From: an uncultured Bacilli bacterium
GTDB lineage: Bacteria; Bacillota_I; Bacilli_A; RFN20; CAG-449
Reading direction: 5' to 3'
Length of the DNA stretch: 64,000 bases
Assembly: GCA_947595215.1 (NCBI GenBank)
Contig: CANQEO010000004.1
Coordinates: 5,493 to 69,492, forward strand
How positions within the stretch are numbered: position 1 is the stretch's first letter; each line of letters starts with the position of its first letter. Both the position numbers and the translations under genes were made by a program. Of this stretch, positions 413 through 40,647 are shown piece after piece. The notes beneath the pieces are model-generated. The model made no database searches and had not been told where the DNA came from. It was given only the letters and a program-made list of their open reading frames with translations.

Positions 413-1048
413 TTAGTTTATCGTCTTTTGCTCTTCTTCTTGAGTTTCCAGACTATCGGTCTCTTCTTTTTTCAGCTTAGAAACCGCGACCATCGCTGGT
501 CTAATAAGGCGATCTTTGAGGAAATATCCTTTTGAGAATACTTGTAACACCTTATTTTCAGTATCGCTTTCGCGAACTTCAATCGCTTGCATCGAATCGG
601 CAGAAAAGTCACTTCCAATTTCAGGAGCGATTTCTTTAACTCCTTCACTTTCTAAGACATTAACGATTTGTCGATAAATCATCTCAAAACCTTTAAAATA
701 ATTTTCTAAAGCTGGATCATTAGGTTTTACCATTAAAGCCATATGGAAGGAATCGAAGACTGGAAGCAATGATTCAATAAAGCCACTTGCGCGATATTTC
801 AGCATCATTTGATGATCTTTTTCGTAAGATTTACGAAGATTATCACAATCGGCATATGCTTGATAGAATTTTGTTTTCCAATCATTTACTTCTTGTTCTA
901 ACTTAACGATTTGTTCTTGAATTTTCTTTTCTTTACGAGATTTTTTTTCTTTTGTATTTACTTCTTCGGTTTCACTTGATGTTTCAGCATTTTCGTCATT
1001 GTTTTTATTTTCTTCCATCATCATCATCCTTTCTAGCAAAGAATTCAT
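413..1048 (-). CDS. grpE: Nucleotide exchange factor GrpE
   Basis: Acidic and coiled-coil N-terminus, with a GrpE-like C-terminal region ([16 protein letters not shown]). Positioned between hrcA and dnaK. The start is uncertain: four consecutive ATGs at 1027-1016 follow an AAAGGA Shine-Dalgarno, so the real start is probably one of these rather than 1048. Confidence 0.9.
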
Positions 1049-2039
1049 TTAATTGTTTTTGAATGTATTCAAGGGCATTCATTACTTTTTGATAGTCCAT
1101 TCTAGTCGGTCCTACTAAGGCGATACGTCCTTCGTGATCATCACCGATTTTAATTTTAGTAGTTACTAACGAAACATCATCGAATCCATTTCCATCTTCG
1201 TCTTTGCCGATGAAGACGTCGATATCATCATTTGAATGAAGATATTCAGCGACTGATTTAGGATTTTCTATCAATCCGATTAATCTTTTTAACTTATCAA
1301 TATCAGAATTGAATTCGGGCTGTTCAAGCAAATTTTTAGTTCCGAACAGACTGATACGATCAGTAGCAAATTTCAAGAAAATTTCAGCAAATGCGCGATA
1401 TAATATATCATTATTTTTTAAATGTTGAGTAATAATTTCGCGTGATGCTTCCATCTTTTCGATTAATCCCGATATCGGAGTTCCCCTCATTCTTTCTTGA
1501 ATTACTTTGACACAGTTTTCGATATCTTTTATATCAACCTGTTCAGGAATAATAAAAGTCTTATTTTCGACGTAACCTTTATCAGTAATAAATACTGCGG
1601 TCACCGAATTTTCCGAAAGCGGAATCACTTGTACCGAAAGGAGATGTTCTTCTTCAGCACTAGGTCCTAAAACAATTGAGGCTAAGTTAGTCATGTGCGA
1701 GAGAATTTCACAACTTTCTTTAATGACATCATCAATCGATTTTGATTTTTCATTTAAGATAATAGCGAGCTGATTTTTGATTTCTTCATCGACATCACGT
1801 TGACGTAAATAGTCGATATAGTAACGATAACCTTTCGCAGAAGGTACTCTTCCTGATGAAGTATGAGTCTTTTCAATTAACCCATCATTTTCTAAATTCA
1901 TCATTTCGTTACGGATCGTCGCCGATGAATAAGGAAGATCGTATTGCTCTATAAGCGTGTTGCTACCTACCGGAGCCGCCGTTTTGATAAAGTATTCGAC
2001 GATATATTTTAGGATTAGATCACGCCTTGGTAATGCCAT
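1005..2039 (-). CDS. hrcA: Heat-inducible transcription repressor HrcA
   Basis: 344 aa with an N-terminal wHTH (ILKYIVEYFIKTAAPVGSNTL). First gene of the hrcA-grpE-dnaK operon, with CIRCE immediately upstream. Confidence 0.93.
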   Translation of the reverse strand: MALPRRDLILKYIVEYFIKTAAPVGSNTLIEQYDLPYSSATIRNEMMNLENDGLIEKTHTSSGRVPSAKGYRYYIDYLRQRDVDEEIKNQLAIILNEKSKSIDDVIKESCEILSHMTNLASIVLGPSAEEEHLLSVQVIPLSENSVTAVFITDKGYVENKTFIIPEQVDIKDIENCVKVIQERMRGTPISGLIEKMEASREIITQHLKNNDILYRAFAEIFLKFATDRISLFGTKNLLEQPEFNSDIDKLKRLIGLIENPKSVAEYLHSNDDIDVFIGKDEDGNGFDDVSLVTTKIKIGDDHEGRIALVGPTRMDYQKVMNALEYIQKQLNEFFARKDDDDGRK

Positions 2040-2054
2040 CGTTAACTCACCTCT

Positions 2055-2081
2055 TTAGCACTATTAATATTCAAGTGCTAA
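2055..2081 (-). promoter_or_regulatory. CIRCE operator (HrcA binding site) in the hrcA leader
   Basis: TTAGCACTA-N9-AAGTGCTAA, against the consensus TTAGCACTC-N9-GAGTGCTAA. Located between the -10 box and the hrcA start codon. Confidence 0.85.
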
Positions 2082-2085
2082 GTCT

Positions 2086-2113
2086 ATTATACCCACTTTT
2101 TTAGCAGTGTCAA
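2086..2113 (-). promoter_or_regulatory. SigA-type promoter of hrcA-grpE-dnaK
   Basis: On the minus strand: TTGACA (2113-2108), 16 nt spacer, TATAAT (2091-2086). Confidence 0.7.
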
Positions 2114-2127
2114 CACTTTATTGCTAA
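2101..2127 (-). promoter_or_regulatory. Second, degenerate CIRCE-like inverted repeat overlapping the -35 box
   Basis: TTAGCAGTG-N9-TATTGCTAA. The outer TTAGCA/TGCTAA arms are retained. It sits at the same position as the better second CIRCE upstream of clpB. Confidence 0.5.
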
Positions 2128-2144: not shown

Positions 2145-2380
2145 AAATTTAATCATCTTTCTCACTTTTAAATCAATCTATTTTCGCTTATTTTCATAAA
2201 TATCCCTATGTCTAAATAACAAATATAGTTAAGACATAGTTTTTTTTCGGAAGGATTTATTTTATCATTATTATTAGTTTATTTAATAAATAGAAATAGA
2301 AAAAAGATTACTCTAAGTAAGAGTAATCCATAGCCAATATTAATATATTAATTTGAGCAAGTAATGAGTAAAGTGCAAGG
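2145..2380. repeat. Copy 1 of a 236-bp perfectly duplicated non-coding module (partner at 36864..37099)
   Basis: Base-by-base comparison of the two stretches shows no mismatch at a constant offset of 34719. Both lie in the same orientation upstream of a CIRCE promoter. Confidence 0.9.
2299..2328 (-). terminator. Rho-independent terminator after the RDD/hemW transcription unit (inside repeat copy 1)
   Basis: On the minus strand: GATTACTCT-TACTT-AGAGTAATC followed by TTTTTT. Confidence 0.7.
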
Positions 2381-2400: not shown

Positions 2401-2820
2401 TTAGTTCACTCCTTTATTATTAATAGAAACTATTTTGCTATTAGTAAGTTGATCAAATATGCTGATTTCGGTATGCTGAACAATCATATATATCGCATTT
2501 AAGACCACCATCATTGGAATTGAAAGAAGAACCGCTCGAATTGCGCTATCCCTAAAGGTCATTCTTTTTCCATCGAAGCGTAAAACACGACTACGAACGA
2601 TAAATTGACCAATGCTAATTCCGTTAAATGTCCATAAGAAGAAAGTATTGAAAATTGCGTAGATGACAATTTCAAAAATCATCAACCATAAAGGCAAAGT
2701 TAAAAAATCCATATTCACTCTTTGTGATAATAAAAAGTAGATAATGGTACCAAATCCTAAAGCAATTACAGCATCGATAATAAAAGATATAACTCTCCGC
2801 TCAAAACCGACAATATCCAT
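2401..2820 (-). CDS. RDD-family small integral membrane protein
   Basis: 139 aa with three hydrophobic helices and an RDD-like layout (RRVISFIIDA..., ...RFDGKRMTFRDSAIR). Confidence 0.55.
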   Translation of the reverse strand: MDIVGFERRVISFIIDAVIALGFGTIIYFLLSQRVNMDFLTLPLWLMIFEIVIYAIFNTFFLWTFNGISIGQFIVRSRVLRFDGKRMTFRDSAIRAVLLSIPMMVVLNAIYMIVQHTEISIFDQLTNSKIVSINNKGVN

Positions 2821-7538: not shown

Positions 7539-9869
7539 TTATGAATTCCAAAATTTTTGGACTTCTTCACTTATCTCTTCTATCGAGTAGACACGTTTAT
7601 AATGCGACCATTCTTTTTTAAACATCTCGCGATATTTTTGATATAAAAACCGCGAATCAATTAGCATCACGACACCTCGATCAGTAGCTGAACGTATGAC
7701 CCGACCTGCCGCCTGCATCACTTTATTCATCCCCGGATTAGTATAAGCGTAATCGTAACCTTCTTCTCCATTATTGTTAAAATGTTCTTTTAATAAATCA
7801 CGTTCAAATGAGATGGTCGGAAGACCTACTCCTACAATCACCGCACCTATTAATCGATCTGAAGATAAATCAATACCTTCTGAAAAAGCACCACCTAATA
7901 CCGCAAAACCAATCATTGTCTCTTTTGGTGATAAAACAAATCGGTTTAAAAATTCCGCTCTTTCGCTTTCTTTCATATCACGAGTTTGTTTCAAAGTAAA
8001 ATATTCATCATCTTCAAAATAGCGATATACCTCTTCTAGGTAGGCGAAAGAAGGAAAGAAAACTAAATAATTGCCGACTTTAGCGTTAACCATCACTTTA
8101 ATCGAATTCGCGATATCGCGATATGATAATGGACGATCTTTTAAACGCGTTGAAATATCGCCTCTTATTAATAACAACAAATTTTCTTTTGGAAATGGTG
8201 AATCAAGCGAAATATAAGGACTTGTTTCATCACCGCCTAGAAGACGAATATAATAATCGCGCGGTGTGAGGGTTGCCGAAAAGAAAACCGCACCGCGTAA
8301 TTTTTTTAAACTATCAGATATCAATCTAGATGAATCTAAACATCTGATATGAGCAACAACATTATCATCTATCTTTTCAAAATAAGTGACAAAATCATCA
8401 CATACAAATTCACGTAGTTTTAAAAATTTATTTACATCTTTAAAGATTTCACTGAATTTTTCATTAGAGAAATTTTGATTTTCCTTCATAGTATCCTGTG
8501 AAGCTTTAAAATAATTATCTAAAGCAGCGTAAAATTCTAATGAAAAATCGCCATCTTGAATTTGATATATTTCTTCTTTTTCTTTAGTTTGTTCAAAGTG
8601 GTTAATAAGTTTTTTGAGGTGACGTTTTAGTTTTGGTAGTTTCTCTTTTTTTAATAATTGTCTTAAAAAAATTAAACTATTTAAATCTAAAGAAGTTGAA
8701 TACATCTCCCGCGAACGATCAACTAAATTATGGGCTTCATCAATAAGCGCAAGATAATCTTCTTTTACTTCATCAAAGTAACGTTTTAAATACGCCATCG
8801 GATCAAAAACATAGTTATAATCACAAATGATAACATCTGTGAATAAAGATAAGTCGAGCTGTAATTCAAATGCGCACATCGCATTTTGATAAGCTATAGT
8901 GGTAATGTAATTTTCATCATAGAGATCTTCATCGTTTAGCATTTCTTGTAAAACAATACGTAATTTATCGTAATAGTTTCTCGCAAAAGGACATTCATCA
9001 GGGTTACAATGAGATACATCATTTTGACACATTTTTTCCTTGGCAGTTAATTTAATAGCTTTGATAACTAAACCTTTTTCAATCATTACTTTTAAAGCGT
9101 CAAACGCGATTCCTTTTTGGGAACTTTTAGCCGCTAAATAAAAAATCTTATCATTCTTTTCTTCAGCGAATGACTTGATTGCTGGAAACAATGTCGACAT
9201 CGTCTTTCCAATGCCAGTCGGAGCCTCTGCGAAAAGAAGTCCTCCATCTTGAGCAATCTTATAGGTAAATTTAGCTAATCGATGTTGTCCTTCTCTAAAA
9301 GTCGGATATGGAAATTCCAGTTGATTACTAGATTCCTTTATCCTCTTTTTATGGGTGTCGATTCTTCGATAAAATTCGAGGTATTCCTTAATTAAATTAA
9401 TCACTTCTTCTTCGAGTTTTTCTCTGGAATAAGAAAAGCTTTTAATGAGTTTTGAATTATCAATTTGAGAGATATAAGTAAGGCGACACGATATCTTTTT
9501 TAAATCATTTTGATTAGCAAACATTAAAGCATAACATTTGGCTTGAGCTAAATGCCATTCGCCCTGTTCTTCAAAAAAAGTTTCCAAATCAGCGACGGTC
9601 GATTTAATTTCATCGATAGTAACACGATCTTTCTCAACGATAATTCCATCAGCACGTCCTGAAAGCATCACTTCAAAATCGTCAACATTAAAACTTTCTT
9701 CCAGATAGACTTCTGAAAGATAATTGCCATTTTGAATACTTTGATACCGAAGGTGAATTCTTGTCCCTTCAAGCATGGTGGCATTATTAAAAACACGCGA
9801 ATCGATGCTTCCGCGTCTTAATAAAAAATCAACAAGGCCATGTACCGAAAGGTTTAAGGTTCGTTCCAT
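7539..9869 (-). CDS. PD-(D/E)XK nuclease domain fused to an XPD/DinG-family (Rad3-like) Fe-S DNA helicase
   Basis: N-terminus carries GRADGI...IDEIKS...QAKCY (RecB/Cas4-like D..ExK..QxxxY). It is followed by Walker A (APTGIGKT), a Cys cluster (CQNDVSHCNPDECPF...C) and a DEAH box (LIDEAHNL). The C-terminus has helicase motifs (GAFSEGID, QAAGRVIR). Confidence 0.8.
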   Translation of the reverse strand: MERTLNLSVHGLVDFLLRRGSIDSRVFNNATMLEGTRIHLRYQSIQNGNYLSEVYLEESFNVDDFEVMLSGRADGIIVEKDRVTIDEIKSTVADLETFFEEQGEWHLAQAKCYALMFANQNDLKKISCRLTYISQIDNSKLIKSFSYSREKLEEEVINLIKEYLEFYRRIDTHKKRIKESSNQLEFPYPTFREGQHRLAKFTYKIAQDGGLLFAEAPTGIGKTMSTLFPAIKSFAEEKNDKIFYLAAKSSQKGIAFDALKVMIEKGLVIKAIKLTAKEKMCQNDVSHCNPDECPFARNYYDKLRIVLQEMLNDEDLYDENYITTIAYQNAMCAFELQLDLSLFTDVIICDYNYVFDPMAYLKRYFDEVKEDYLALIDEAHNLVDRSREMYSTSLDLNSLIFLRQLLKKEKLPKLKRHLKKLINHFEQTKEKEEIYQIQDGDFSLEFYAALDNYFKASQDTMKENQNFSNEKFSEIFKDVNKFLKLREFVCDDFVTYFEKIDDNVVAHIRCLDSSRLISDSLKKLRGAVFFSATLTPRDYYIRLLGGDETSPYISLDSPFPKENLLLLIRGDISTRLKDRPLSYRDIANSIKVMVNAKVGNYLVFFPSFAYLEEVYRYFEDDEYFTLKQTRDMKESERAEFLNRFVLSPKETMIGFAVLGGAFSEGIDLSSDRLIGAVIVGVGLPTISFERDLLKEHFNNNGEEGYDYAYTNPGMNKVMQAAGRVIRSATDRGVVMLIDSRFLYQKYREMFKKEWSHYKRVYSIEEISEEVQKFWNS

Positions 9870-34210: not shown

Positions 34211-36760
34211 TCATTTAAAAATAAATTTTCCGTTTTGATAATCAATTGTCACTTTTGACTTTTCATGTATATTTCCTTTAAGTATTTCACTAGCTAAAGG
34301 TGTCTCAATTTCTTTTTGAATATAGCGTTTTAAAGGACGCGCTCCATATATTCTATCAAATCCAGTCTCCGCTAAATGTTGTAGTGCCATTTCAGTAATT
34401 TCGAGAGAAATTGACATTTTTTCTAAACGATGTTCTAATTCATCTATAAATTTTTTTGCAATCTTTTGAATCATTTCCGATTCTAATGGTTTAAAGAAAA
34501 TTATTTCATCAATTCTATTTAAAAATTCTGGTTTAAAACGTTCCTTTAACTCTTGTTGAACTTTATTGAGATTTTTATCATTATATCCATCTAATAGATA
34601 TGTTGAGCCAATATTACTGGTCATAATTAAAATCGTATTTTTAAAATCAACTATTCTTCCTTTAGAATCAGTTAAACGACCATCATCTAATACTTGAAGA
34701 AGAATATTAAACACATCTGGATGAGCTTTTTCGATTTCATCAAGAAGCACGATTGAATATGGTTTTCTTCTTACAGCTTCAGTTAATTGTCCACCTTCTT
34801 CATATCCAACATATCCTGGAGGAGCACCTAAAAGGCGAGAAACCGAAAATTTTTCCATATATTCTGACATATCTATGCGAATAATTTGTGCTTCAGAATC
34901 AAATAAATTAGCTGCAAGGGCTTTTGCAACCTCAGTCTTACCAACACCTGTAGGTCCTAAGAAAAGAAAACTACCGATTGGACGATGTTCATCATTAATT
35001 CCCGCTCTTGAGCGAAGAATCGCATCACTCACTTTAATAAGCGCTTCATCTTGACCGATAACTCTTTTACTTAAAGAATCTTTTAATCCCAATATTTTAT
35101 CAGTTTCACTCTTTTTTAATTTATTAAGAGGAATACCAGTCCATTTAGAGACGACTTTTGCGATATCTTCTTCTTTTACAACCTCATCAAGCATCTTTTC
35201 TTTGTTGTTACTCTCACTGGATTCAATCAATTTTTCTAATTCTGGTATTGTCTGGTATTGAATTCGAGCTGCTTTTTCATAATCGGCATTATTTAAAGCA
35301 TGTTCCAAATCAAGTTTTGCTTTTTCGAGATCTTGCTTAGCGCTTTTAGAACGATACAATTCTTCTTTTTCTTTTTCCCACTTAGCTTTAACTTCAGTTT
35401 GTTTTTGCGTAAGTTCTGCAATTTCTTTATCCATCTTTTTAAGTCGATTAATTGCAATTTCACTATTTTCTTTGCTCAAGGATACTCTTTCAATTTGGAG
35501 TTGCATTAATTTTCGATTGATTTCGTCTAATTCAACTGGTAAAGAATCTATTTGCATTCTTGTAGCCGCACATGCTTCATCAATTAAATCGATAGCCTTA
35601 TCTGGTAAAAAACGGTCGGAAATATATCGTTTAGAAAGGCTAGCAGCCGCTACAAGCGCAGAGTCTAAAATCTTAACACCATGGTGCGATTCGTAACGCT
35701 CTTTTAAACCACGTAAAATTGAAATAGTATCTTCTAGAGTCGATTCATCGACAAGAACCTTTTGCATTCTTCTCTCAAAAGCTGGATCTTTTTCGATGTA
35801 TTTGCGATATTCATCTAAAGTAGTAGCGCCAATACAATGAAGTTCACCACGAGCAAGCATTGGTTTTAATAAATTAGCAGCATCCATAGCACCATCGGTT
35901 TTACCCGCACCAATCAATGTATGAATTTCATCGATAAAAAGAATTATATTTCCTTCCGATTTTTTAATTTCATTTAAAGTTGCTTTTAATCTTTCTTCAA
36001 ATTCGCCACGATATTTAGCACCAGCAATTAACGCTCCCAAATCTAATTCATATATTGTTTTATCCTTTAGTGAAAATGGAACATCACCTTTAAAAATTCT
36101 CCATGCTAAACCTTCTACTATCGCTGTTTTACCGACGCCTGGTTCACCAATTAATACAGGATTATTTTTACTTTTTCGTGATAATATTTCAATCACTCTT
36201 CTAATTTCCTCATCTCTACCGATTACTGGATCAATTTTACCACGCGCAACATCTAGTGTTAAATCACGACCATACTTTTCAAGAACTTCATATTTTTGTT
36301 CTGGATTTTGATCTTCGACATGATTATTTCCACGAATCATTTTAATCGCTTCCTCAAATTTTCTTTGCTCAAAATTTGGTATTTTAGTAAGTTTGCTGAC
36401 TAATGAATGTCGTGAATCAAATAGTGCTAATATTAAATGCTCTACACTTAAATATGAATCTTTATATTCGTTCATATATTTGCGCGCATTATATATTAGG
36501 TTATTTAAATCAGTTGAAAGATATTGTTGAGAAACACTATTTGATTTTGCTCTCCCATCGACATACTCATTAATAATTTGATTAACAGCGTTTATCTTTA
36601 CTCCAACTTTAGATGCAATGTTAATTAGCATCGATTCTGGATCATCAATCATCGCTTTTAGTAAATGCGAAATATCTATTTCGCTACTTGCATTATCTTT
36701 AGCAATAATGCTTGCTTGATTAAGTAAATTAATAACTTTTTCTGTCATATTATTTTCCAT
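34211..36760 (-). CDS. clpB: ATP-dependent chaperone / disaggregase ClpB
   Basis: 849 aa with two AAA+ modules (GEPGVGKT, GPTGVGKT) separated by a long coiled-coil middle domain. GGGGTG Shine-Dalgarno 8 nt before the ATG. Confidence 0.95.
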   Translation of the reverse strand: MENNMTEKVINLLNQASIIAKDNASSEIDISHLLKAMIDDPESMLINIASKVGVKINAVNQIINEYVDGRAKSNSVSQQYLSTDLNNLIYNARKYMNEYKDSYLSVEHLILALFDSRHSLVSKLTKIPNFEQRKFEEAIKMIRGNNHVEDQNPEQKYEVLEKYGRDLTLDVARGKIDPVIGRDEEIRRVIEILSRKSKNNPVLIGEPGVGKTAIVEGLAWRIFKGDVPFSLKDKTIYELDLGALIAGAKYRGEFEERLKATLNEIKKSEGNIILFIDEIHTLIGAGKTDGAMDAANLLKPMLARGELHCIGATTLDEYRKYIEKDPAFERRMQKVLVDESTLEDTISILRGLKERYESHHGVKILDSALVAAASLSKRYISDRFLPDKAIDLIDEACAATRMQIDSLPVELDEINRKLMQLQIERVSLSKENSEIAINRLKKMDKEIAELTQKQTEVKAKWEKEKEELYRSKSAKQDLEKAKLDLEHALNNADYEKAARIQYQTIPELEKLIESSESNNKEKMLDEVVKEEDIAKVVSKWTGIPLNKLKKSETDKILGLKDSLSKRVIGQDEALIKVSDAILRSRAGINDEHRPIGSFLFLGPTGVGKTEVAKALAANLFDSEAQIIRIDMSEYMEKFSVSRLLGAPPGYVGYEEGGQLTEAVRRKPYSIVLLDEIEKAHPDVFNILLQVLDDGRLTDSKGRIVDFKNTILIMTSNIGSTYLLDGYNDKNLNKVQQELKERFKPEFLNRIDEIIFFKPLESEMIQKIAKKFIDELEHRLEKMSISLEITEMALQHLAETGFDRIYGARPLKRYIQKEIETPLASEILKGNIHEKSKVTIDYQNGKFIFK

Positions 36761-36775
36761 TAAAATATCACCCCT

Positions 36776-36802
36776 TTAGCACTTATTATATCCAAGTGCT
36801 AA
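36776..36802 (-). promoter_or_regulatory. CIRCE operator 1 in the clpB leader
   Basis: TTAGCACTT-N9-AAGTGCTAA, between the -10 box and the start codon. Confidence 0.85.
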
Positions 36803-36806
36803 AATA

Positions 36807-36834
36807 AGTATACCACCATTTTTAGCAGTGTCAA
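36807..36834 (-). promoter_or_regulatory. SigA-type promoter of clpB
   Basis: On the minus strand: TTGACA (36834-36829), 16 nt spacer, TATACT (36812-36807). Confidence 0.7.
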
Positions 36835-36848
36835 TATTTGAGTGCTAA
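36822..36848 (-). promoter_or_regulatory. CIRCE operator 2 overlapping the clpB -35 box
   Basis: TTAGCAGTG-N9-GAGTGCTAA; one arm is a perfect match to the consensus. Confidence 0.8.
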
Positions 36849-36863
36849 ATTTTTTAACTTGTA

Positions 36864-37099
36864 AAATTTAATCATCTTTCTCACTTTTAAATCAATCTAT
36901 TTTCGCTTATTTTCATAAATATCCCTATGTCTAAATAACAAATATAGTTAAGACATAGTTTTTTTTCGGAAGGATTTATTTTATCATTATTATTAGTTTA
37001 TTTAATAAATAGAAATAGAAAAAAGATTACTCTAAGTAAGAGTAATCCATAGCCAATATTAATATATTAATTTGAGCAAGTAATGAGTAAAGTGCAAGG
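36864..37099. repeat. Copy 2 of the 236-bp perfectly duplicated non-coding module (partner at 2145..2380)
   Basis: Identical to copy 1 at every position I compared. Same orientation and same position relative to the CIRCE promoter. Confidence 0.9.
37018..37047 (-). terminator. Rho-independent terminator after the antiporter gene (inside repeat copy 2)
   Basis: The same GATTACTCT-TACTT-AGAGTAATC plus TTTTTT hairpin as at 2299..2328. Confidence 0.7.
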
Positions 37100-37199
37100 T
37101 ACAACTTTCCTTTTTACTCTTCTTGTTTTTTATAATAAATTAATTAATATTATTTTTACTGAATATCAACAAAATACTTTATTTTTCTAAGGATCTTTT

Positions 37200-38204
37200 T
37201 TAATTTGCAAATACTGGATAAACAACATGAGTCAAAATTAAATATGTAACGTAACCGATATATAAGACAACTAATACTCCTCCTTCAATCTTTCCAAGCT
37301 TGCTTGATGTCAATGAGAAAATATATACTAAAATACAAATTGCTAATAAAATAATAATATCAACAATAACACTTAATGAAACTTCTAATCCTGTTCCCAT
37401 TGCTCCTGTGATTGTCGCAGATGCACCTAAAATTAATAGTATATTGAAAATATTAGAACCGATTGCATTACCTAAAGCAATATCATTTTCGCCTTTTCGA
37501 GCCGCGACTATTGAAGTAACAAGTTCTGGTAATGAAGTTCCAACCGAAACAATAGTAAGAGCCACTAAAGCTTCATCCATTCCAAATGCCAAAGCAATTT
37601 CTGAAGCGGTAGTTGTGACACATTCACCACCAAACCAAATTGCTACAATACCAAAGAGAATGAATATAACAGATTTTAAAATACTCATTTCTTTTTTATT
37701 GTTACCTTCATTTTCAATATCTTCTTCCAGTTCTGTATGCTCTTTTTTTGCCATCTTAATTTGCATTAAAACATAGCAGATAAGAATAACTAAAAGAATT
37801 ATTCCGGTTATTAATCCAATTTTTTGTGGTGTGATAAATAGCGAAACAATCAAGACTATAGAGGTAATAACTAATAGTAATGGAAACTCAAATTTAAGCA
37901 TTGATTTTTTTACTGCGATTGGCATCATTACAGCTGACATACCAAGAACCATTAAAGTATTAAAGATATTTGATCCGATAACATTACCAACTGACATATC
38001 AGCTTTTCCAGCCACTGCGGAAACTATACTAACAGATAGTTCTGGTAATGAAGTTCCAATTGAGACGATAGTTAAACCAATTATTAGCGAAGAGATTTTT
38101 AATCTGCGCGCTACCGAAGAAGAACCATCAACAAATTTATCAGCTCCAACAATAAGAAGAACCATTCCGATAATCAAAAATAAAAAGTTTAAAAATAAAC
38201 GCAT
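37200..38204 (-). CDS. Ca2+/Na+ antiporter (CaCA family, YrbG-like)
   Basis: Two alpha-repeats (GTSLPELSVS..GNVIGSNIFN and GTSLPELVTS..GNAIGSNIFN) separated by an acidic loop. Confidence 0.88.
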   Translation of the reverse strand: MRLFLNFLFLIIGMVLLIVGADKFVDGSSSVARRLKISSLIIGLTIVSIGTSLPELSVSIVSAVAGKADMSVGNVIGSNIFNTLMVLGMSAVMMPIAVKKSMLKFEFPLLLVITSIVLIVSLFITPQKIGLITGIILLVILICYVLMQIKMAKKEHTELEEDIENEGNNKKEMSILKSVIFILFGIVAIWFGGECVTTTASEIALAFGMDEALVALTIVSVGTSLPELVTSIVAARKGENDIALGNAIGSNIFNILLILGASATITGAMGTGLEVSLSVIVDIIILLAICILVYIFSLTSSKLGKIEGGVLVVLYIGYVTYLILTHVVYPVFAN

Positions 38205-39796: not shown

Positions 39797-39870
39797 GCCA
39801 GCTTAGTTCATTGGTAGAATAAATCACTCGTAATGATTAGAGACAAGTTCGATTCTTGTAGCTGGCACCA
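39797..39870 (+). tRNA. tRNA-Thr (anticodon CGU), CCA encoded
   Basis: Hand-folded cloverleaf. Acceptor GCCAGCT/AGCTGGC and D arm GTTC-ATTGGTA-GAAT. Anticodon arm AATCA-CTCGTAA-TGATT, giving anticodon CGT. T arm ACAAG-TTCGATT-CTTGT, discriminator A, then CCA. Total 74 nt. Confidence 0.9.
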
Positions 39871-40518: not shown

Positions 40519-40647
40519 TATCAGAGTAGTTAAGAAGCGTTAAGTGCTATGCGATGGGAAGTGGCGCATAGACGAACACATATGTGGCGGTTTCTTAACG
40601 CGTCCGCTGGTACAAGAGCGGACCTCTAGTATAAGGAGGTCTTTTTT
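40519..40647 (+). promoter_or_regulatory. THF (tetrahydrofolate) riboswitch, aptamer 40519-40612, plus terminator / SD-sequestering expression platform
   Basis: Matches the THF-I conserved blocks: AGAGUAG ... GCGUUAAGUG ... AUGGGA ... ACGAA ... GGCGGU ... CGCGUCCGCUGG. P1 is UAUCAG/CUGGUA. The downstream hairpin GACCTC-N9-GAGGTC plus TTTTTT contains the SD. The gene below it is an ECF folate S-component. Confidence 0.85.

Follow-up and report, generated by a model that had tools for sequence, protein, structure and literature searches.

The hrcA and clpB promoters of an uncultured Bacilli lineage are each accompanied by an exact copy of the same 236-bp module, and comparison with related genomes indicates that this module is recent, species-restricted, non-coding DNA rather than an old and conserved regulatory element. 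The reading that we prefer, though tentatively and at somewhat less than an even chance, is that it is, or was copied from, a young non-autonomous insertion element that entered at a pseudo-terminator target and works as a two-way terminator or insulator. The module provides a clean case of young non-coding DNA at the same base beside two co-regulated promoters, and annotators should not take it for a conserved element of heat-shock regulation.

The repeat and its genomic setting

The DNA analyzed here (the window) is a stretch of 64,000 nucleotides from an 851-kb MAG of this lineage (24 contigs, 65% complete, 32% G+C). The four genes that flank the two loci all lie on the minus strand:

1005-2039, minus strand: hrcA (PF01628), which opens the hrcA-grpE-dnaK-dnaJ operon
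2145-2380, no strand assigned: core copy 1, upstream of hrcA (unitig breaks at 2174 and 2351)
2401-2820, minus strand: RDD-family membrane protein gene, upstream of hrcA
34211-36760, minus strand: clpB
36864-37099, no strand assigned: core copy 2, upstream of clpB (unitig break at 37070)
37200-38204, minus strand: Na/Ca-exchanger family gene, upstream of clpB

The two core copies match at every base, as the earlier note on this DNA had claimed for a perfect, same-orientation duplicate of 236 bp; they are direct repeats spaced 34,719 bp apart, and their identity ends sharply at 2144/2145 on the left and at 2380/2381 on the right. In a fragmented MAG of 24 contigs and 65% completeness such a repeat might be the product of metagenome mis-joining, a chance that we consider negligible in light of the unitigs and of other assemblies. 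Logan unitigs (k=31; ERR10663690, ERR10663692 and ERR10663693) stop exactly 30 nt (k-1) within the repeat, at 2174, 2351 and 37070, so that the branching is exact at three of the four repeat boundaries in three or four runs. In other assemblies clpB is found beside these neighbors on five long contigs or more; ENA NODE_68, the one of them that was read through, has the core at both the hrcA and the clpB loci, and four further long contigs keep the neighbor genes. Furthermore, the longest k-mer common to both loci outside the module is at most 16 nt, which is too short for a false join. The repeat is no assembly artefact.

A prophage or island with att repeats was ruled out as the source of the repeat: the 34.7 kb between the copies holds housekeeping genes, and in the same-genus genome G001 a single contig carries hrcA and clpB, oriented alike. 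Two perfect direct repeats of 236 bp at this distance are a substrate for deletion or duplication of the intervening segment.

Distribution of the module

Within the 851 kb of its own genome the module is present in two copies, with no weaker matches. The earlier note had asked for its copy number here and in relatives, and had held that many further copies at unrelated loci would mark it as a generic dispersed repeat; the count is two in this 65%-complete MAG and zero in the relatives searched. The module was not found in three same-genus genomes, though these keep the promoter cassettes and the neighbor genes of both loci, nor in 31 genomes of the family, 400 of the order and 400 of the class, nor in phage and plasmid collections, and three exact stretches of it had no match in JGI metagenome contigs or GTDB genome contigs. 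The species is itself rare, with neighbor proteins that form single-member clusters and a nearest HrcA that is 88% identical, followed by one at 65%. No intermediate lineage by which to date the event was found among these single-member neighbor-protein clusters.

An ancient cassette beside a young module

On their promoter side both copies adjoin a cassette of fixed 81-nt architecture in which a proximal CIRCE lies at the transcription start, followed by a consensus -10, a -35 (TTGACA) within a distal CIRCE and then a T-tract:

2047-2127, minus strand: hrcA dual-CIRCE cassette (CIRCE at 2055-2081 and 2101-2127; -35 at 2113-2108; -10 at 2091-2086)
2128-2138, no strand assigned: T-tract and ATTAA past the distal CIRCE at hrcA, with the new DNA beginning right after TTAA (clpB counterpart at 36849-36857)
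36768-36848, minus strand: clpB dual-CIRCE cassette (CIRCE at 36776-36802 and 36822-36848)

In Spiroplasma melliferum the dnaK and clpB promoters likewise have two CIRCE copies each (PMC5138195), and the cassette described here, which controls hrcA, clpB and groES, resembles that dual-CIRCE HrcA regulon. The groES copy lies on contig C10 (G000:C10:2048-2128), and the htpG promoter on contig C5 has a single CIRCE that overlaps its -35 (G000:C5:74746-74772). The earlier note was hence mistaken in treating hrcA and clpB as the two CIRCE promoters of this genome, groES (dual) and htpG (single) being CIRCE-controlled as well; neither of these two further promoters has the module. The module also stands apart from the operator of the HrcA/CIRCE regulon in that it lies outside the conserved operator and has no CIRCE inverted repeat (TTAGCACTC-N9-GAGTGCTAA), a pattern scan finding two per cassette only.

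Matches to the cassette occur in 57 of 61 related genomes. Because identity to the orthologous cassettes of the same-genus genomes G001 and G002 is 90-95% in each case, whereas the hrcA, clpB and groES cassettes are 69-79% identical to their paralogues within their own genome, the comparison indicates that the cassette is ancient and constrained, and that the 79% identity between 2047-2133 and 36768-36854 is the standing distance between paralogues rather than decay after a duplication. The earlier note had put this promoter-proximal identity at roughly three-quarters, a sound estimate, and had called it counter-intuitive that the functional part should have diverged while the distal part is perfect. 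The pattern is real; the paradox is gone, since the old, constrained cassette and the young module have separate histories.

In the same-genus relatives (L023 1595-1615 in G001; L024 and L025) only ~7 nt, and no terminator, separate clpB's distal CIRCE from the stop codon that closes the co-directional exchanger gene; clpB is open to read-through there unless bound HrcA blocks the polymerase.

Predicted terminators and other content of the module

Two predicted hairpins lie within the module, each with the G+C-containing stem-loop and following T-run of an intrinsic (Rho-independent) terminator:

2206-2247, plus strand: terminator-like hairpin T2, CTATGTCT...AGACATAG, 8+4-bp stem and T8 (identical copy at 36925-36966)
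2299-2329, minus strand: terminator T1, 10-bp stem GGATTACTCT/AGAGTAATCT and T6 (identical copy at 37018-37048)

T1 has a predicted fold of -11.9 kcal/mol (z -4.5) and T2 one of -10 kcal/mol (z -1.9), the latter having been missed by the terminator scan because its loop is longer than the scan rule allows. The two are convergent, on opposite strands and 51 nt apart. T1 is the sole predicted terminator of the RDD gene, and its copy at 37018-37048 that of the Na/Ca-exchanger gene; the earlier note, which had placed the module downstream of the upstream gene's terminator, was therefore wrong, as the module itself contains the only predicted one.

T2, by contrast, is a hairpin followed by T8 with no plus-strand gene there to terminate, and this speaks for a functional RNA: an sRNA of ~95 nt on the plus strand (~2155-2247), transcribed from a divergent, HrcA-controlled promoter, with its -35 over the distal CIRCE, and ending at T2, its two copies kept identical by selection and conversion; alternatively, the module might bind a further regulator of the heat-shock promoters. 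Weak promoter-like hexamers do lie over the distal CIRCE (TTGCTA-17-TAAATT at hrcA, by eye, and TTGAGT-18-TAAAAT at clpB), and the putative RNA has an unstructured, pyrimidine-rich 5′ part. Such promoter-like sites are, however, no commoner than in shuffled sequence, complementarity to the genome does not exceed that of shuffles once self-matches are removed, and perfect identity of loop and spacer would be unexpected from selection alone. No Rfam 15 family matches the module at gathering score; at E<=10 there are two chance-level matches, to PCGEM1 (E 9.4, overlapping the right end of the core) and to rliI (E 5.8, outside the core). We accordingly regard a functional RNA or regulator-binding site as very unlikely, given also that the module is conserved in no relative and is missing from the groES and htpG CIRCE promoters. 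The conserved functional platform that the earlier note had offered as one explanation is unsupported on the same grounds: no other genome searched has the module, two CIRCE promoters of its own genome do without it, and no RNA family matches.

No open reading frame is intact in both copies, in agreement with the earlier note's statement that the module contains no conserved ORF. A small protein or type I toxin was considered and rejected: frames of 35, 25 and 23 aa have no Pfam or NCBIfam match and no relatives, and none is whole at both loci. The 35-aa hydrophobic frame (MSKVQGTTFLFT...; 37083-37190, plus strand) begins in the right end of the module and is a gene call in public assemblies; at hrcA it is truncated to 11 aa, it has no family match, and it is probably spurious. 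Capture of the 3′ ends of two convergent genes was likewise unsupported.

Filled and empty sites at clpB and hrcA

The DNA that is new to this lineage extends beyond the core at both loci:

2139-2400, no strand assigned: lineage-specific DNA at hrcA, beginning CTCG (right limit uncertain, 2390-2420)
36850-36857, no strand assigned: left 8-bp direct repeat TTTTTTAA at clpB, where relatives have a single T7-9AA
36858-37195, no strand assigned: whole clpB insert, 338 bp, CTTG...GGATC, comprising 6 nt, the core and 96 nt (filled versus empty against G001-G003)
37196-37203, no strand assigned: right TTTTTTAA copy at clpB, which includes the stop codon of the Na/Ca-exchanger gene

At clpB the relatives' distal CIRCE is followed after ~7 nt by the exchanger stop codon (CIRCE, T7-9, AA). 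In this genome the two copies of TTTTTTAA enclose 338 bp, and joining the flanks restores the empty site of the relatives, which points to an insertion with an 8-bp direct repeat. Among the three explanations that the earlier note had left side by side (recent gene conversion, selection on a functional element and a mobile intergenic element), it is the recent copying of lineage-specific DNA that holds up, by the absence from relatives and by this pair of empty and filled sites.

The hrcA locus is less simple. Relatives have a ~120-bp spacer there with its own terminator, which in this genome is replaced by 2139 to ~2400, and the C-terminus of the RDD protein differs from theirs. There is no clear target duplication, only a loose resemblance between ATTAA and TTTAATTAA. 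The 96 bp to the right of the core at clpB are missing at hrcA and occur nowhere else in the genome, and the 6 nt just left of the core (CTCGCT at hrcA, CTTGTA at clpB) differ by three mismatches. T1 weakly resembles the native hrcA-side terminator of the relatives (p ~0.02, z ~2), so that the hrcA copy could be native DNA; the resemblance is no better than that to unrelated control loci.

This architecture can also be read without a mobile element. The module may have arisen once, for example as the evolving hrcA-RDD spacer. A copy would then have reached the second locus through break repair or ectopic gene conversion, with the paralogous CIRCE cassette as anchor and T-tract microhomology as the join on the far side; or two old copies may have been kept identical by repeated conversion. 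The copies do share their orientation and lie right beside the only sequence common to both loci, there are just two of them, they have no inverted repeats, and TTTTTTAA at the two clpB junctions could be microhomology instead of a target duplication. The weak likeness of T1 to the relatives' hrcA terminator would fit an origin in that spacer, and the genome has other near-exact repeats within diverged paralogues (1905 bp at 99.8% and 1539 bp at 98.9%). The anchor, however, is poor: the cassette offers 81-87 bp at 79%, with a longest exact run of ~16 bp, and a 17-nt stretch with an indel and mismatches separates it from the identical tract. To the right of the core no significant homology joins the loci (209 of 500 shuffles do as well), the right 96 bp of the clpB insert have no counterpart elsewhere in the genome, and the T1 resemblance is matched by unrelated loci. 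On balance, we judge copying by recombination alone to be rather unlikely.

With the module, clpB has gained a new predicted terminator where relatives, whose clpB abuts the upstream stop codon, have none, and hrcA a replacement terminator; read-through into the two stress operons has probably been changed by it.

A resident IS91-family element and its junctions

Four kinds of repeat end terminate most contigs of the MAG and are the marks of multi-copy elements left unassembled. A gene fragment with a match to PF04986 (Y2_Tnp, the rolling-circle transposase of the IS91 family) has its 3′ end ~100 nt before the type C end (...AATTTCCTAG), which occurs together with the type B end (...GATTTTGTTC) in the same genomes. 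Type B is 100% identical across genera, which suggests a recent horizontal spread of the element. In 15 of 17 independent sites, drawn from six genomes (four of this genus and two of other genera in the family), the type C end, which begins CTAG or CAAG, follows directly after a terminator hairpin, a T-run and TTAA; no consistent target duplication was seen for this resident IS. Its type C ends lie outside the window, at C5:1-75, C6:1-75, C12, C13, C17, C20 and C23 of G000, for example, and ends of the element occur elsewhere in G001 (C37), G002 (C8 and C10), G003 (C3, C5 and C45) and G013 (C1, C3 and C47). Such strict targeting of the position after a terminator is perhaps a more interesting lead than the module.

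Both copies of the module start at this same signature of palindrome, T-tract and TTAA. At hrcA the distal CIRCE palindrome is followed by T6, ATTAA and then CTCG (2139-2142), and at clpB by T6AA and then CTTG (36858-36861). The IS91 family is described as having target or cleavage tetranucleotides that include CTTG, GTTC and CTCG, no inverted repeats, subterminal palindromes, frequent overshoot of the terminus and no target duplication (PMC13181058). The module is similar in its CTCG or CTTG start, its subterminal palindromes and its lack of inverted repeats, and the unequal length of its copies at one end recalls missed termination in the one-ended transposition of IS91 elements, as its junction context recalls that of the resident Y2_Tnp-associated element. 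It differs from the family in having no transposase, and from the family's use of targets in that the tetranucleotides are missing from the relatives' empty sites; CTCG and CTTG may thus be part of the insert and not of the target. No significant similarity was found between the module ends and either the resident IS ends or the four contig-end repeat types.

Two further observations concern repeats of this kind. A second repeat family occupies 14 contig ends, on C1, C4, C9, C14, C15, C16, C18 and C19 (type A) and on C3, C11, C13 and C22 (type A′); these ends have a long imperfect palindrome between an A-run and a T-run (AAAAAAGGGATG...CATCCCC TTTTTT), which is two-way terminator-like, and they face inward at both ends of some contigs. 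Beside a degenerate IS91-like copy in G002 (contig C8; L068 1206-1931) lies a 241-aa ORF whose start resembles a REP-associated/IS200-type Y1 transposase (MARQARDKSPLGVYFVNLRASE...) and which matches no Pfam family.

A possible insertion at a pseudo-terminator

The young insertion element that we prefer would have entered, in each case, directly past the distal CIRCE palindrome, T-tract and TTAA of the ancient HrcA-controlled cassette, using the same terminator-proximal TTAA target as the resident multi-copy IS91-family (Y2/HUH) IS. An insertion process that favors the 3′ side of terminators would take the CIRCE palindrome and its T-tract for a terminator, and this likeness of an operator palindrome to an intrinsic terminator is the likely reason for arrival at the same base beside two co-regulated promoters. 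The identity of the copies would mean either that the second copy is very recent or that the cores have lately been homogenized by ectopic gene conversion. Judging from its anatomy, T1 would end transcription of the co-directional upstream gene (RDD or Na/Ca exchanger) and shield the tightly repressed heat-shock promoters from read-through, while T2 on the opposite strand would stop divergent or antisense transcription, making the module a portable insulator, whether selected or incidental.

The empty and filled clpB sites, the junction signature, the absence from relatives, the exact identity with its unitig breaks and the terminator folds all support a small insertion. Against it stand the two copies only, the lack of terminal inverted repeats (the best alignment of the left end to the reverse-complemented right end is equaled in 263 of 1000 shuffles), ends unlike those of the resident IS, an hrcA copy without the 96 bp of the clpB insert and without a clear duplication, the three differences in the six positions left of the core, for which a simple recent copy does not account, and a groES cassette that has a similar T-tract and TTAA yet no insert. 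The weak resemblance of T1 to the relatives' terminator, by which the hrcA copy could be native, counts in the same direction, and derivation from IS91 in particular is opposed by the 8-bp direct repeat at clpB, whereas that family makes no target duplication.

A bolder version would make the module a previously unseen small non-autonomous element, moved by a terminator-seeking IS91-family transposase that mistakes CIRCE and T-tract for a terminator; heat-shock promoters would in this way receive a portable two-way terminator cassette, perhaps along with an HrcA-controlled divergent sRNA. We consider this version quite unlikely; if it were true, a terminator-seeking element would be rewiring how a whole regulon is insulated in one lineage.

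Comparison with known systems

Tested against known classes, the module is a lineage-specific small non-coding insertion or repeat that fails the tests for a MITE and partly fits an IS91 derivative. It has neither terminal inverted repeats nor many dispersed copies nor a parent IS with matching ends, and of the target duplication expected for a MITE there is the 8-bp TTTTTTAA at clpB, against a single site in relatives, and the loose resemblance at hrcA. As an IS91 derivative it departs from the no-duplication rule at clpB, and its ends are not recognizably like the resident oriIS and terIS.

The SPRITE, RUP and BOX elements of Streptococcus pneumoniae are small interspersed intergenic repeats, SPRITE being Rho-independent-terminator-like (PMC10969869). 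By analogy, the module resembles terminator-bearing small intergenic repeats such as SPRITE, with junctions that resemble the IS91 type: it is short, non-coding and intergenic, has terminator-like hairpins, is confined to one lineage and may alter the transcription of its neighbors. Whereas SPRITE, RUP and BOX have tens to hundreds of copies, the module is known in two copies, lacks inverted termini and has no relatives in sequence.

Ectopic gene conversion or concerted evolution would likewise give an identical, sharp-ended tract in two otherwise diverged loci, as in other such tracts of this genome; unlike a conversion tract, the module has non-homologous right flanks and a left flank set off by diverged bases—the 79% cassette ends 17 nt from the identical tract—and is new DNA at both loci. 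Class C group II introns of bacteria insert just past intrinsic terminators, and the module shares with them a position immediately 3′ of a hairpin and T-tract; unlike them, it has no ribozyme domains and no Rfam match, and it is only 236-338 bp long.

Other features of the genome

The 1539-bp tract of 98.9% identity (G000:C10:2217-3754 and 7777-9314) extends over the 3′ halves of two paralogous genes for ~1210-aa surface proteins, one of which ends 90 bp upstream of the groES CIRCE cassette; together with the 1905-bp repeat of 99.8% on contig C1, it looks like gene conversion. An Rfam scan of the window located a tRNA gene (39797-39867, plus strand) and a THF riboswitch (40520-40611, plus strand; 76 bits). 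At the end of contig C21 (G000:C21:1-960), an array with a 66-bp period, composed of a 36-nt repeat (GTTTGAGAGTAATGTTAAATTAGGTATTACTTATAC) and spacers of ~30 nt, looks like a CRISPR array.
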